DNA of 29,031 bases from Candidatus Helarchaeota archaeon (lineage in GTDB: Archaea > Asgardarchaeota > Lokiarchaeia > Helarchaeales > RDOG01), in contig JALGVI010000061.1 in assembly GCA_029838215.1 (NCBI GenBank), forward strand, positions 1-29,031, in the 5' to 3' direction. The notes under the pieces were generated by a model. The model did not search any database and was not told the origin of the DNA. It saw only the letters and a list, made by a program, of their open reading frames with translations. This document shows positions 1 to 5,033 of this stretch, one piece after another. The position numbers and the translations under genes were made by a program. Position 1 is the first letter of the stretch; every line of letters begins with the position of its first letter.

Positions 1-45
1 CGTGAATCTTCCGATTTATTCATGAAGAAAACTGAGGAACTGAAC

Positions 46-804
46 ATGTCGTCATTTGAGAATGAAAGTGTCAAGCGGGCCATTCAAGACTTGAACGTGG
101 GAAAATTCATCCTTGTTTATGATGTTGATGGTCGTGAGGAAGAGGTAGACTTGGTAGTTTTAGCCGAAAAAGTTACAAATGAACACGTTTACCATTTGCG
201 TCATGATGCGGGTGGTTTGATCTGTATTGCCATGGATAAAAAGATTGGTGATGGTTTAGGACTCCCATTTATGGCAGAAGTGTATTCAAAGCTGCGGAGT
301 GAATATCAAATTTTCGAATCCGTTGCACCATATGGTCATAAAGAGGAACGTTGTAGTTATGGCGACAAGCCTTCTTTTAGCATTACCATAAACCATCGCA
401 ATACACGTACAGGAATAACGGACCATGATCGTGCACTAACAATTTCAGAATTTGCAAAGCTTGGACGACAAGTATTTCACAACGGAGTGGATCCGGTGGC
501 ATATCGCGAGCAATTTGGTAAGAATTTTAGGGCTCCCGGACACACGCATTTACTTTTAGCTGCGCCTCAATTGTTGAAGGATCGAAAAGGACACACGGAA
601 TTAACGGTTACTTTGGCTCGGTTAGGAAATTTGACACCCGTTATTGTTCTCTGCGAAATGCTTGATGGCAAGACAGGTAGAGCACTTTCCTTGAAAAAAG
701 CGCGAGAATATGCCCGAGAACATGGTTTGGTAATGGTCGAAGGCAAGGAAATCATAAGCGCATTTAACGAGCAGTTCAAGGAGTTATTCATTCAAAATGC
801 CTAA
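46..804 (+). CDS. ribB: 3,4-dihydroxy-2-butanone 4-phosphate synthase, archaeal type
   Basis: Motifs REEEVD (cf. RENEGD), GGLICIA, TGITDHDRALT, PGH, RKGHTE, LCEML. ATG at 46 is preferred over 22 because GAGGA lies just upstream (34-38). The frame is also open back to position 1. Confidence 0.95.
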   Translation: MSSFENESVKRAIQDLNVGKFILVYDVDGREEEVDLVVLAEKVTNEHVYHLRHDAGGLICIAMDKKIGDGLGLPFMAEVYSKLRSEYQIFESVAPYGHKEERCSYGDKPSFSITINHRNTRTGITDHDRALTISEFAKLGRQVFHNGVDPVAYREQFGKNFRAPGHTHLLLAAPQLLKDRKGHTELTVTLARLGNLTPVIVLCEMLDGKTGRALSLKKAREYAREHGLVMVEGKEIISAFNEQFKELFIQNA

Positions 805-1270
805 AATAAAAGTTGGCATTGCAGACACGACCTTTGCCCGCGTGGACATGGGTGCCATGGCAATTGACGAGCTCCTTCAATTGACATCTAAAATCGAAGT
901 TGTCCGATATACTGTTCCTGGAATGAAGGATTTACCTGTTGCTTGTAAGATACTTTTTGAGCAACATGATTGTGCGATTTGCATGGCTATAGGGATGCCG
1001 GGACCTGCTGATAAAGATAAAATCTGTGCGCACGAAGCGTCGCAAGGAATTATCAATTGTCAATTGCAAACAGGCAGGCACATTATCGAATGTTTTGTCC
1101 ACGAAGATGAAGCAGAAACTCCGAAAGAATTAATAGAAGTATGTGAAAATCGGTCGCGAAAACACGCACGTAATATTTTTTATCTTTTATTTGATAAAAA
1201 ATGGTTCATAAAAAATGCAGGAAAGGGTCTTCGGCAGGGATTTCCTGATGCGGGACCCATAAAAGCTTGA
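797..1270 (+). CDS. ribC: Riboflavin synthase, archaeal (lumazine-synthase-like pentameric) type
   Basis: N-terminal KVGIADTTFARVDMG, RYTVPGMKDLPVACK, GMPG..DK.CAHEAS and HIIECFVHEDE are typical of the archaeal enzyme. Overlaps the ribB stop. Confidence 0.93.
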   Translation: MPKIKVGIADTTFARVDMGAMAIDELLQLTSKIEVVRYTVPGMKDLPVACKILFEQHDCAICMAIGMPGPADKDKICAHEASQGIINCQLQTGRHIIECFVHEDEAETPKELIEVCENRSRKHARNIFYLLFDKKWFIKNAGKGLRQGFPDAGPIKA

Positions 1271-1284
1271 AAATGGTGTGAAAC

Positions 1285-1713
1285 ATGTCTGAAGAAATAC
1301 GATTAGGATTTGTCGTGGGTGAATTCCATTACGACATCACTAGCATGATGCTTGAAAAAGCTAAAGAACACGCCGAATTCCTCGGTTGTAAGGTAATTAC
1401 CGTCTTTAAGGTTCCTGGTAGCTTTGACATGCCTTTAGCAATTAAGACTCTATTAAAGCGAGATGATATTGATGCCGTGGTTTGTATTGGTGCCGTTATC
1501 ACGGGTGATACGGATCATGACCAAATTGTTGCTCAGCACGCTGCACGAAAAATGGTAGATCTATCTTTGGAATTTGATAAACCCGTTGCTTTGGGTGTAT
1601 CGGGACCGGGCATGACAAGGCTTGAAGCCGTTGAAAGAATCGAAGATTTTGCACGGCGTTCTACAGAAAGCGCGGTAAAAATGGTTAAGAGAAAAAGAGA
1701 ACAATCTAAATGA
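1285..1713 (+). CDS. ribH: 6,7-dimethyl-8-ribityllumazine synthase
   Basis: [41 protein letters not shown] motifs; position in the rib operon. Confidence 0.95.
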
Positions 1714-1723
1714 GGAACTATCT

Positions 1724-2479
1724 TTGATTCAAATTACAATAATCCAATTAGATAATTTTGGTCCATACACGGAAACGCTAGGTGACGATAGAGAGCATGA
1801 TGTCCAAATAGTATTGGCAAAAGCTTACCTGCTCTTGCAGGATCTTTTCAGCCGGAAGAATGGGCTTGTTTTTCAAGCCTCCAAGGACAACATGATCGCC
1901 GTGACCAATGGAATCTCCATCAAAGAACACGAACAAATCATGAATCTATTCGAGCAAGAACTTCAAATCACGTGTTCCATGGGGATTGGTGTGGGAATAA
2001 CACCGATGGAAGCTCAGATAAAAGCTTCTAGAGCCCTGCAAAAGATGGGTAGTGCACAATCTTCTCGTCGGAAAGTTCTTGCGAATAATGGATCGATTCC
2101 AGAACCAAATGGAGCCATTCATATCGCCCACGTAGACATCAACGATTTCACGATTCACGCGACAGATAAAAATCCCATTTATGATAATTTTTATTTACTA
2201 AATCGAAGTTATCTCACGCTAATGGAGTCATTCCAAAAAATCGGAGCACTCTGTTTTTTTAATGGAGGAGATAACTTCGTTACAATTTGTCCTGAGAATT
2301 TCCCTCTTGATGAATTCAAGCGAATTATTTCAAATTATGAAAGACTCCATAGTCCATGGAAGCTGAAAGCAGGGATTGGAAAGGGCGACACTGCAAAAAT
2401 TGCCATGCTAAATGCGAATAAAGGATTGACAACCATTCGAAAGCACGAATCGGAAGACATGATTGTTTTGGTGGAGTAG
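1724..2479 (+). CDS. arfA: GTP cyclohydrolase III (IIa)
   Basis: IQITIIQLDNFGPYTETLGDDREHDVQ start; duplicated cyclase-like halves with KDN and GGDN motifs; TTG start after GAGGA. Confidence 0.9.
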   Translation: MIQITIIQLDNFGPYTETLGDDREHDVQIVLAKAYLLLQDLFSRKNGLVFQASKDNMIAVTNGISIKEHEQIMNLFEQELQITCSMGIGVGITPMEAQIKASRALQKMGSAQSSRRKVLANNGSIPEPNGAIHIAHVDINDFTIHATDKNPIYDNFYLLNRSYLTLMESFQKIGALCFFNGGDNFVTICPENFPLDEFKRIISNYERLHSPWKLKAGIGKGDTAKIAMLNANKGLTTIRKHESEDMIVLVE

Positions 2480-2482
2480 CGT

Positions 2483-3667
2483 GTGTCCTCAAATACTCTT
2501 TTTGTAAAACATGCCTTGATTGGAGAAGAATTGGAGCTCAAGCAAAACGTCGAATTGAAGTATTCTGAAGGATACATCGATAGGATTTCCATTGACGTCA
2601 AGGCATCGACTGAACCCAAAATCACGGATTGTCTTTTGATTCCAGGGCTCATTAACGGTCATACCCATATCGGTGATTCTTTTGCGAAGGAAATGGGGTA
2701 TGGAAAGACACTTTCAGAGGTAGTTGAGCCTCCAAACGGGATTAAGCATCGACTTCTATCAACCGTTTCCCAAGAAGAACTCATTTCTGGGATGAGATTA
2801 GCGATTAGGGAAATGCTTTCTAGTGGAACAACGTTATTTGCAGATTATCGAGAAGGTGGAATTGATGGCATTTATGCATTAAAGCAATTATTAAAAGAGA
2901 GCATGATTAAAAGCATCATTCTCGGGCGACCTCACCCTACGGTTGACATGGAGAAGTTGCAAAACGTTTTAAAAATGTCGGATGGTCTCGGAATCAATTC
3001 AATAAACCTCCTATCCGATTCCGAGTTAGAACTCGCGAAATTATTTTGCGTGGAAGGTCAGAAAATTATCTCGACCCATGCGTCAGAAACAAGCCAAGAA
3101 CGTGACATTTCTTTTCAAAAACACGGTAAATCAGACATCGAGCGAGCCATTAACACTTTCAATGCAGAGTATTTGATCCATTGCATTTATAGTAACGACA
3201 ATGACTTGGATTTGATAGCAAAAAAGAACGTTGCCGTAGGAATCTGTCCACGGGCTAACCATTATTTTGGCTTAGACGTGCCTCCCATCCAAAAGATGAT
3301 TGAACGTGACATAACGCTTTGTCTGGGAACGGATAACGTGATGGCAAATTCACCGGATCTCTTTCGTGAAATGGAATTTTTGGCGAAATATGCCTGTCAT
3401 TTGAAGAATCCCATTCCAGCAAGAGAGATTTTAAAGATGGTGACCATCAATCCTGCTCGTGTATTTCGCCTCGATCACATACTTGGATGCTTGAAAGAAA
3501 TGAACAGGGCAGATTTTTTTCTTCTTGATCTTACAGCACCAAATCTCCGTCCTATTAATCAATCTCATATCTATGAGACCATCGTATTACGTGCAAAAGC
3601 AAGTAATGTAGTTTCAACACACGTTAATGGCATGAAAACCCACGACCGGAGGGAGTTGCTGTCCTAA
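2483..3667 (+). CDS. Metal-dependent amidohydrolase-superfamily deaminase (candidate pyrimidine deaminase of riboflavin synthesis)
   Basis: PGLINGHTHIGD (HxH), THASE (HxxE), LIHC, LGTDN (catalytic Asp) and the C-terminal beta-sandwich strands. GTG start after GGTGGAG. The family is well supported; the specific function is inference. Confidence 0.85.
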   Translation: MSSNTLFVKHALIGEELELKQNVELKYSEGYIDRISIDVKASTEPKITDCLLIPGLINGHTHIGDSFAKEMGYGKTLSEVVEPPNGIKHRLLSTVSQEELISGMRLAIREMLSSGTTLFADYREGGIDGIYALKQLLKESMIKSIILGRPHPTVDMEKLQNVLKMSDGLGINSINLLSDSELELAKLFCVEGQKIISTHASETSQERDISFQKHGKSDIERAINTFNAEYLIHCIYSNDNDLDLIAKKNVAVGICPRANHYFGLDVPPIQKMIERDITLCLGTDNVMANSPDLFREMEFLAKYACHLKNPIPAREILKMVTINPARVFRLDHILGCLKEMNRADFFLLDLTAPNLRPINQSHIYETIVLRAKASNVVSTHVNGMKTHDRRELLS

Positions 3668-3690
3668 CCGACATCACCATCCCAAAATCT

Positions 3691-4377
3691 CGTCCGTATG
3701 TCATATTAAATGCAGCCATGAGTGTTGACGGCAAAATTGCTTCCAGAGTAGGGGATTGCGAGTTCTCTGATGACGAAGATTGGAAGCGCGTTCACAAGTT
3801 GCGTGCAAGCGTAGACGCGATCATGGTCGGCAGGAGGACAATTGAAACAGACGATTCGAAGTTGACGATAAAATCATTTCCAGATTTTAAAATTCCTATT
3901 TCAAAATTCCCCACGAGAGTCGTGGTTGATGGTTTGGCGAAGACACCAGCCACGGCGCGGATATTCACCGTAGAATTGGAACATTATCCATCAATTCTCG
4001 CTACTACGACAAATGCCCCGAAAGAGAAACTTGACGAAATCAGAGCATTAGGCGTGAAAGTATTGGTTTGTGGGAAGGGACCTCGAGTTGATCTCGTTCA
4101 CTTGATGAGAGACCTCCGCACGATGAACATTCGAACGCTCCTTTTAGAAGGTGGTGGAACTTTAAATTTCAGCATGTTGGAGAATGATTTAATAGATGAG
4201 GTGAGCCTTTCTGTGGCGCCTGTTCTTGTTGGTGGACTATCAGCCACTTCATTAATTGGTGGAAAGGGCTTTGATAAAATTAAGCAATCCTGTCAATTAG
4301 AACTCATTGAATTCGAAAAACTCGGAAAGAACCTCTTCGTGCGATATTTGGTTCGACGGAATGGCGAAAAAACGTGA
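3691..4377 (+). CDS. arfC: 2,5-diamino-6-ribosylamino-4(3H)-pyrimidinone 5'-phosphate reductase (RibD C-terminal domain family); true start unresolved
   Basis: RPYVILNAAMSVDGKIA, RVHKLRASVDAIMVG, LLLEGGGTLNFS, APVLVGG. The conserved RPYVILNAA (3691-3717) lies upstream of the first ATG (3718). Confidence 0.9.
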   Translation, partial: RPYVILNAAMSVDGKIASRVGDCEFSDDEDWKRVHKLRASVDAIMVGRRTIETDDSKLTIKSFPDFKIPISKFPTRVVVDGLAKTPATARIFTVELEHYPSILATTTNAPKEKLDEIRALGVKVLVCGKGPRVDLVHLMRDLRTMNIRTLLLEGGGTLNFSMLENDLIDEVSLSVAPVLVGGLSATSLIGGKGFDKIKQSCQLELIEFEKLGKNLFVRYLVRRNGEKT

Positions 4378-5033
4378 AAAGGAAAATACTTCCCATTGGT
4401 TCATTCGAACAGCACGGTCCACACCTACCGTTAGAAACAGATTCACTCATTGCAGAAAAAATTTCTCGAGAACTCTCGCGAAATATTCAGGCAGACCTCC
4501 TAGAGACGATCAAGGTGAGCTGTTCCGATGAACACGCGGATTTTTCAGGAACTAAAAGCATTTCAGGGGAAACTTTCGAAGAATTAATAATTAAAGTACT
4601 TAAAAAAGAACTCAATTCCACGCAACAATTAATTGTTTTCAATGCGCATGGTGGAAATTCTCAAATACTTAAGAAAATTGCAAGATCCAATCCAGAAGTC
4701 CTATTTCTCGATTTATTTGAAACCATTAAAGGCCATCTCATCCAAACCCGCGATTCTTCTTTGGGTGGAATATGTCATGCAGGTGAATTTGAGACTTCGT
4801 TAATGATGTATTTGTTTCCATCTTTAGTAAGGGTTCAAGAAATCAAGCCTGAAATCGTAACGCTCGTTCCAGAGCTCGACCCGGATTTTGACGGTAATCC
4901 GCCAAAAACGTGGAAGACGATAAAATTTAGTAAATCGGGCGTATTAGGAGATCCAACGAAAGCAACCAAATCAAAAGGGGAAGCTTGGTTTAAAATAATA
5001 ATTAAAGAATGCTTGAATCGCATTAATTGTTAA
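4374..5033 (+). CDS. arfB: Creatininase-family formamide hydrolase (FAPy 5'-phosphate deformylase)
   Basis: LPIGSFEQHGPHLPLETD, SDEH, NAHGGN, HAGEFETS metal-site motifs; GTGA overlap with the arfC stop; context with arfA and arfC. Confidence 0.85.
   Translation: MKRKILPIGSFEQHGPHLPLETDSLIAEKISRELSRNIQADLLETIKVSCSDEHADFSGTKSISGETFEELIIKVLKKELNSTQQLIVFNAHGGNSQILKKIARSNPEVLFLDLFETIKGHLIQTRDSSLGGICHAGEFETSLMMYLFPSLVRVQEIKPEIVTLVPELDPDFDGNPPKTWKTIKFSKSGVLGDPTKATKSKGEAWFKIIIKECLNRINC

Follow-up and report, generated by a model that had tools for sequence, protein, structure and literature searches.

The window analysed here, a 29,031-nucleotide stretch of a Candidatus Helarchaeota genome (assembly GCA_029838215.1, contig JALGVI010000061.1), opens with a co-oriented riboflavin operon of seven genes that fills its first 5 kb, and in which arfC, the gene of a RibD_C-type reductase, follows an amidohydrolase gene and lacks a canonical start codon ahead of its conserved N-terminus. 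We think it likely that this arfC is a separate gene, translationally coupled to the amidohydrolase, that has lost its canonical start and is (re)initiated on a non-canonical codon within positions 3661-3681. In the scheme we propose, the arfC start position came to coincide with the amidohydrolase stop in a Helarchaeales-like clade, where a G-to-A transition would have kept the stop (TGA to TAA) and turned the start from TTG into TTA, a codon that is CTA in the window species. Ribosomes ending the amidohydrolase, held by a Shine-Dalgarno (SD) motif at 3648-3652, would then (re)initiate on a non-canonical codon within 3661-3681 and produce a full-length ArfC of about 230-238 residues, presumably at a low level that would be enough for a vitamin pathway. 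The source genome is metagenome-assembled (170 contigs, 94% complete, 6.2% contamination), and for this organism only metagenome assemblies exist.

The amidohydrolase open reading frame (ORF) ends ...HVNGMKTHDRRELLS, followed by its TAA stop at 3665-3667. The arfC frame, which stands at -1 relative to it, is open from position 3628, directly after a TAA at 3625-3627, and thus runs across the last 40 nt of the amidohydrolase. Its first ATG, GTG or TTG is ATG 3718, and a search of 3628-3717 found no canonical restart codon among the 30 codons that precede it in this frame; NCBI table 11, which lists AUU, AUC, AUA and ACG as rare starts, offers only ATC 3673, ATC 3679 and ATA 3703 as alternatives within them. 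An earlier reading of the window, made from its letters without database searches (the sequence-only reading), had drawn attention to this gap between TAA 3625 and ATG 3718 and to the conserved strand RPYVILNAA that lies within it, and every sequence statement and coordinate that it gave was right. Thirty startless codons are not rare by chance when taken alone, the probability being ~0.17 if ~6% of codons are start codons (a rough estimate, not computed with a tool); the case is real because the startless stretch is demonstrably coding.

That it is coding can be seen from the first beta-strand of ArfC, whose motif R/K-P-Y-x-I/L-L-x-A-A-M is encoded at 3691-3717, upstream of the only canonical start. 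Across the nine RPYVILNAA codons, pairwise comparison of the window with two relatives, L022 and L023, and with the same-family genome G001 gives 5-8 synonymous and 0 non-synonymous differences per pair, a pattern that indicates purifying selection on this stretch; within the clade, codons 19-60 of arfC show 21-26 synonymous versus 4-6 non-synonymous differences. All of the about 100 homologous arfC loci have the strand, alignments to the solved ArfC structures 6p8c and 2azn begin precisely at this strand (with a Met right before RPY in 6p8c), and the matches of the window's protein to TIGR01508 and RibD_C both begin at the RPY residues. Since the strand is conserved and coding, translation of arfC should begin no further downstream than about 3688, most probably within 3661-3681 and not at ATG 3718; inclusion of the strand in the ArfC product would depend on a candidate non-canonical start.

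The alternative that translation starts at ATG 3718, or at ATA 3703, would give an ArfC without its first beta-strand, either impaired or decaying or tolerant of the truncation, and we regard it as improbable. ATG 3718 is the only canonical start, and the models that gene callers made in three assemblies (proteins P0003, P0005 and P0095) begin there or at ATA 3703, the deposited annotation of the sister assembly having protein P0003 start at the ATA (MLNAAMS...). Such a start is hard to reconcile with purely synonymous divergence in the nine codons before the ATG, across lineages that differ by ~30% in protein sequence, with the presence of the strand throughout the homologous loci and the structures, or with the clear constraint on the rest of arfC. 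Moreover, no SD lies ahead of ATG 3718, and all homologues have its Met, the M of AAMS, as a conserved residue inside the protein. ATA 3703 was judged too far downstream because it would remove RPYV from the conserved strand.

Comparison with relatives suggests how translation of the strand may be arranged. The amidohydrolase gene lies directly upstream of a separate arfC in 19 of 19 class-level relatives, and in all 19 arfC starts on ATG or TTG, 3-10 codons before R/KPY. For most of them this start falls inside the last 14-23 nt of the amidohydrolase gene, ~8 nt past a GGAG or GGAGG that is encoded by amidohydrolase ...KGE.../...GG... residues. The sequence-only reading had proposed examining this junction in related Asgard genomes, and what we find there, two genes with an ordinary arfC start close to the same point, is an outcome that it had named as counting against a fusion. 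Alignment of G001 (MKDVIIPNGRPY) with the window (LTDITIPKSRPY) pairs a G001 segment that runs from ATG to the proline codon CCG (MKDVIIPNGRP) with a window segment that runs from CTA to CCG (LTDITIPKSRP); this places the homologous start at CTA 3664-3666, where it overlaps the amidohydrolase stop as C-TAA. Both L022 and L023 have TTA at this position (T-TAA), with the amidohydrolase TAA at the same place, arfC in the -1 frame and a strong SD just upstream. These two loci come from unrelated samples (L022 from a Logan assembly, with an arfC 73% identical to that of the window; L023 from a Helarchaeales assembly, 70% identical), and the TAA at the position of 3665-3667 is kept in four assemblies.

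The SD-like motif GGAGGGAG, which the sequence-only reading had also picked out correctly, has a counterpart in the anti-SD present at the 3' end of the 16S rRNA (...GGATCACCTCCT). Its core is built from CGG and AGG, the Arg codons of lowest usage (10% and 11%), and the motif is identical in L022 and has a GGGGG equivalent in L023; this make-up from the rarest codons, together with the conservation, is evidence for selection on the SD itself and for its use by arfC. The SD has moved along with the start position. Across the genome, canonical starts that come first after a GGAGG lie most often 7-10 nt from it (31, 22, 21 and 20 cases at these four spacers), with 6 cases at a spacer of 11 and about 0 beyond 13. 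From the GGAGG at the junction the spacers are 8 nt to GTC 3661, 11 to CTA 3664 and 20 to ATC 3673. A non-canonical start was one of three options in the sequence-only reading and is the one we favour, and its candidates, GTC 3661, CTA 3664 and ATC 3673 or 3679, form the right shortlist. Initiation within 3661-3681 would be favoured at GTC by spacing and at ATC 3673 or 3679 by codon identity, the latter being the only near-cognate (table 11) starts upstream of the conserved strand. The site of GTC 3661 is occupied by ATC in L022 and by ATT in L023, both recognised rare starts, and that of ATC 3679 by ATT in L023; each lineage thus has a weak or canonical start no more than 6 codons from the stop, without one shared position. 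To our knowledge, neither GUC nor CTA is a recognised initiation codon.

Several observations weigh against non-canonical initiation within 3661-3681. No candidate start combines good SD spacing with a recognised start codon; the 20 nt between the SD and ATC 3673 are a distance for which the genome-wide count of canonical starts is zero; and no single position is start-like in all three startless or near-startless lineages. The difference between TTA and CTA is synonymous (Leu), which would fit an elongating ribosome and not an initiator tRNA, a weak point in that it concerns a single change. Finally, the account is built entirely on sequence from metagenome assemblies.

Haloferax volcanii and E. 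coli provide demonstrated cases of termination-reinitiation at overlapping or closely spaced genes, often with help from an SD (PMC6728339, PMC10666635), and the junction resembles such coupled pairs in several respects. The arfC start position and the upstream stop form a 4-nt overlap, as in ATGA, GTGA and TTGA pairs; the SD lies inside the upstream gene at a functional distance; candidate restarts at 3661, 3664, 3673 and 3679 lie around the stop at 3665-3667; and both genes belong to one operon, in which the junction of arfC with the arfB-like gene is a textbook GTGA. Unlike in those pairs, the stop is TAA, the overlapping codon is CTA or TTA instead of NTG and no canonical start is present, and here it is the coupling mechanism and the exact initiation codon that we infer. 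With near-cognate initiation the junction shares the ATC codons 5 and 11 nt past the stop and, in L022 and L023, an ATC and an ATT 8 nt past the SD; it departs from it in that the best-spaced codon of the window, GTC, is not near-cognate and the ATC codons lie at an unfavourable distance from the SD. ATT has been discussed for -5 overlaps and has ~0.3% of the efficiency of ATG in E. coli (cited in PMC10666635).

The distribution of starts among the closest relatives suggests turnover within a small clade. Trees of both proteins group L023, the window species, L022 and the P0126/P0004 lineage or lineages (support 100/99). On the P0126 contig the called start of the following gene lies 4 nt before the amidohydrolase stop ends; this offset, combined with a canonical start, implies an NTGA overlap by inference from gene coordinates only, no DNA having been seen, and one clade member therefore appears to keep the normal 4-nt start/stop overlap. 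P0004 has an arfC ATG at position 5, 8 nt past the stop, with the same stop-to-RPY distance as the window (again from gene coordinates), and in L022 a canonical GTG stands at position 4, the site of ATC 3673; the window and L023 have no canonical arfC start. The simplest account would be an NTGA overlap in which the single G-to-A transition described above kept the stop and lost the start, after which new starts arose downstream in some lineages of the clade and not in others. L023, which bears TTAA, is basal in both midpoint-rooted trees, and the start change may also have run in the opposite direction. A search of genome contigs found no closer relatives, and among metagenome contigs there were no new clade members, all 80 loci having at most 52% identity. 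One metagenome locus of an unrelated lineage, L025 (1495-1510), has an arfC with ACG where its close relative L028 (14-29) has ATG; this ACG lies inside the last codons of the upstream amidohydrolase, 6 nt past a GGGGTGA SD, and by this comparison L025 appears to be a second, independent loss of the canonical arfC start.

In this clade ArfC may also be made without any start codon of its own, either by SD-tethered reinitiation on TTA, CTA or GTC at NTAA or by a heptamer-independent -1 shift that would give a fusion. We consider this unlikely; if true, reinitiation on such codons would be a prokaryotic counterpart of the start-codon-tolerant reinitiation of eukaryotic viruses.

Programmed -1 frameshifting, or a like form of recoding, in the last amidohydrolase codons would yield a bifunctional fusion, with GGAGG and the rare CGG AGG codons as stimulators. 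This was another option of the sequence-only reading, and no positive evidence for it emerged; we leave it a slim chance because the frame fits, the SD and rare codons could stimulate a shift, and TTA and CTA are synonymous. The arfC frame is indeed at -1 and open across the end of the amidohydrolase, no canonical arfC start is on offer, and all three lineages have a Leu codon at the homologous start position (TTA, TTA, CTA). Internal SDs and rare codons are known prokaryotic stimulators of -1 shifts, for which fucA1 of Saccharolobus solfataricus is the one archaeal case (PMC8211752), and an internal SD and tandem rare codons are both present at the junction. Like fucA1, the junction has overlapping ORFs in a -1 relation and rare codons near the overlap; unlike fucA1, in which an in-phase A-AAA-AAT heptamer is present and one enzyme is split whose orthologues are single ORFs (PMC8211752), it has no heptamer, and all orthologues are two genes. 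An in-phase X-XXY-YYZ motif is absent from the 40-nt overlap of the window, where the AAAA run at 3635-3638 is out of phase as the sequence-only reading had seen, and likewise from the corresponding seven codons of L022 and from L023. The arfC frame of L022 contains a TGA 7 codons before the amidohydrolase stop, and any shared shift site would therefore be confined to seven non-conserved codons; the last sense codon varies with the lineage (TCC, TCT or TTT), and re-pairing in the -1 frame would be poor. Relatives make two proteins, and searches of homologues and Asgard genomes gave no natural in-frame fusion.

RNA structure adds nothing in favour of a shift. No stable stimulatory structure 5-9 nt downstream of a shift site was found in the three sequences, whose local folds of -10.9, -10.8 and -8.7 kcal/mol (z -1.4, -0.4 and -1.0) are not significant, and a 131-nt window around the junction folds with z = +0.37. 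A possible hairpin at 3651-3683, in which the SD (GGGAG) would pair with CCATCCC at 3677-3683 and leave the TAA stop in the loop, is predicted in the three-sequence alignment with a few compensatory pairs; a similar one is predicted in L023 and not in the minimum-energy fold of L022. As a stimulator of recoding it would be weak, and its 5' arm lies upstream of the stop. That the hairpin sequesters the SD is a lead only, the predicted fold not being significant against shuffles.

The remaining option of the sequence-only reading was an indel in a genuine fusion, and one A added to the run at 3635-3638, which falls in the amidohydrolase codons ATG AAA ACC, does mechanically join both frames. We rejected this candidate. 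The amidohydrolase C-terminus is homologous to those of its relatives in its own frame up to the stop, its tail past the insertion site (THDRRELLS) aligning in frame with AYERRYNS of G001 and VYDRRESLS of L022, and the TGA of L022 lies downstream of the A-run equivalent, so that a frame change there cannot be a shared feature. An independent assembly of the same species, L021 (GCA_054383755.1), is base-for-base identical at the junction; its 6 mismatches to the window over 4675 nt all fall outside it. Fused forms were not found in any of the searches: among 251 Asgard genomes, 113 of them with arfC, there is no fused open frame and arfC frames span 218-267 residues; none of the 120 best amidohydrolase homologues, all of 360-420 residues, carries a RibD_C domain; and no fused arfC homologue longer than 436 residues was recovered at E<=1e-20, which is weak evidence by the search's own caveat. 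By these comparisons the amidohydrolase and arfC are two separate genes with no hidden fusion. A sequencing or assembly error, whether indel or substitution, that hides a true fusion or a true canonical start is very unlikely, for although the assembly is fragmented into many contigs with some contamination and the A run is a short homopolymer, a second assembly that differs elsewhere in 4.7 kb agrees at the junction, unrelated samples show the same architecture, and the tail past the A run is homologous in its own frame.

Non-canonical initiation may not be confined to arfC in this genome. We scanned for open frames with a nearby upstream stop, a GGAGG upstream and no canonical start nearby, and found ATC, ATT or ATA (AUH) codons in 7 of 22 hits at spacers of 7-10, versus ~6 of 88 at other spacers. 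There was no general genome-wide excess of startless open frames behind GGAGG, their count being flat across spacers. The best case is an AbrB/PhoU-type protein (L110/L116) whose ATA occupies the very position of an ATG or TTG in four relatives, and whose next canonical start would cut the AbrB-type domain. The other candidates comprise a GT4-like glycosyltransferase, a radical SAM protein, a CCG-domain protein, a MazG-like protein and two without a Pfam match. From these alignments and spacings, several other genes of the genome seem to begin on ATA, ATC or ATT. No homologue of the GT4-like ATC candidate L106 was found in the 12 relatives searched. A TTA candidate on contig C87, considered as a second TTAA case, was discarded: it is intergenic, has a normal ATG 29 codons downstream and has no upstream gene end.

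The surrounding genes are listed in Table 1. The ordinary overlaps at 4374-4377 and between ribB and the riboflavin synthase gene at 797-804 (8 nt) are consistent with a tightly coupled operon. The protein encoded by arfC scores above the curated ArfC family threshold (TIGR01508, 192.9 bits, cut-off 186.45), matches RibD_C (PF01872) at 2.9e-48 over profile positions 1-195 of 197 and matches PDB 6p8c at 1.7e-49. Its upstream neighbour matches Pfam Amidohydro_1 (2.1e-38), Amidohydro_3 and PRK07213 only (NF005552, 324.6 bits, cut-off 294, profile positions 9-378 of 382), with no match to a cytidine-deaminase fold. The last gene of the operon scores weakly against the NCBIfam ArfB model (40 bits, cut-off 180) and better against the MftE model (133 bits, cut-off 172); its label as the ArfB formamide hydrolase rests on operon context, not on family membership.

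Table 1. Riboflavin operon, amidohydrolase-arfC junction and candidate non-canonical starts; positions without a prefix are those of the window.
Feature	Position	Strand	Remark
ribB	22-804	+	First operon gene
Archaeal riboflavin synthase gene (ribC)	797-1270	+	Operon member
Lumazine synthase gene (ribH)	1285-1713	+	Operon member
GTP cyclohydrolase III gene (arfA)	1724-2479	+	Operon member
Amidohydrolase gene, full length, TAA 3665-3667	2483-3667	+	NCBIfam PRK07213 'chlorohydrolase' family; candidate archaeal riboflavin pyrimidine deaminase
SD motif, core GGAGG 3648-3652	3648-3655	+	Within amidohydrolase codons CGG AGG GAG
GTC, candidate non-canonical start	3661-3663	+	8 nt past GGAGG, in the 7-10 nt optimum
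CTAA, degenerate NTGA 4-nt stop/start overlap	3664-3667	+	Codon homologous to the G001 ATG
ATC 3673-3675 and ATC 3679-3681, candidate starts	3673-3681	+	5 and 11 nt past the stop
First beta-strand RPYVILNAA of ArfC, upstream of first ATG	3691-3717	+	Conserved
ATA, start in deposited annotation of sister assembly (protein P0003, MLNAAMS...)	3703-3705	+	Annotation
arfC, first ATG to stop, 219 residues	3718-4377	+	TIGR01508, RibD_C
GTGA, canonical 4-nt start/stop overlap of arfC and creatininase-family gene	4374-4377	+	Same-operon comparison
Creatininase-family (arfB-like) gene	4374-5033	+	Pfam Creatininase 4.2e-51; last operon gene
ATA of AbrB/PhoU-type protein (L110/L116), best case	L110:1162-1164; G000 C13:13091-13093	-	Probable start behind GGAGG
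Other AUH candidates	L106:1298-1300, L107:1217-1219, L109:1373-1375	-	7-10 nt past GGAGG
Other AUH candidates	L108:99-101, L111:108-110, L112:109-111	+	7-10 nt past GGAGG

The separateness of the two genes also bears on the function of the amidohydrolase. Like bacterial RibD, the locus joins a putative pyrimidine deaminase gene to the gene of a RibD_C-type reductase in a riboflavin operon, and the C-terminal domain of RibD is homologous to the ArfC reductase. Unlike RibD, it has two frames with a conserved stop between them and no fusion in any relative, and the upstream enzyme has the signature of an amidohydrolase (a TIM-barrel metal hydrolase), not a cytidine-deaminase-type N-terminal domain; the archaeal order of reduction and deamination is also reversed with respect to bacterial RibD (PMC5397151). 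The sequence-only reading had held that a fusion would support the deaminase hypothesis in the manner of a Rosetta stone; since there is no fusion, there is no such argument for a deaminase. The pairing of the genes is another matter. A PRK07213-type amidohydrolase gene lies directly upstream of arfC, mostly overlapping it, in 23 of 23 Asgard loci examined (the window and L002-L024), and an amidohydrolase gene does so in 7 of 80 metagenome loci; the gene in the window is the only PRK07213-type copy above the family cut-off in this genome. For the missing archaeal pyrimidine deaminase, gene clustering has pointed to 'PyrD' (with MJ0699 and HVO_2483 as candidates), a prediction only (PMC5397151, PMC8305020), and PRK07213 was detected in the M. 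jannaschii and H. volcanii control genomes, with two controls, which ones not stated, above the cut-off. The invariant and mostly overlapping amidohydrolase-arfC pairing is consistent with the published candidate 'PyrD', to whose family the window protein may belong.

The finding is a modest one: an annotation correction, a case of start-codon loss and turnover in a small clade, and a natural substrate for the study of start-codon stringency. In gene callers' models arfC is truncated to 217-224 residues, with the start placed at the internal Met or at ATA 3703, which costs it a strand present in every homologue; the start should be moved to about 3661-3679. A deposited Lokiarchaeia arfC, P0018 at locus L024 (1950-2000; 208 residues), likewise begins at an internal Met (MSADGK) despite an available TTG start 11 codons before RPY, and truncated models of this gene are probably widespread in Asgard annotations. 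For the evolution of overlapping genes, the junction would be a natural example of an NTGA overlap that loses the downstream start by one mutation that is silent for the upstream gene, with the downstream gene then persisting under purifying selection in lineages with ~30% divergence. Weak or non-canonical codons may thus be tolerated in the coupled reinitiation of Asgard archaea, and, together with the other ATA, ATC and ATT candidates, the junction would provide testable material on how an archaeal lineage with eukaryote-like initiation factors selects its start codons.

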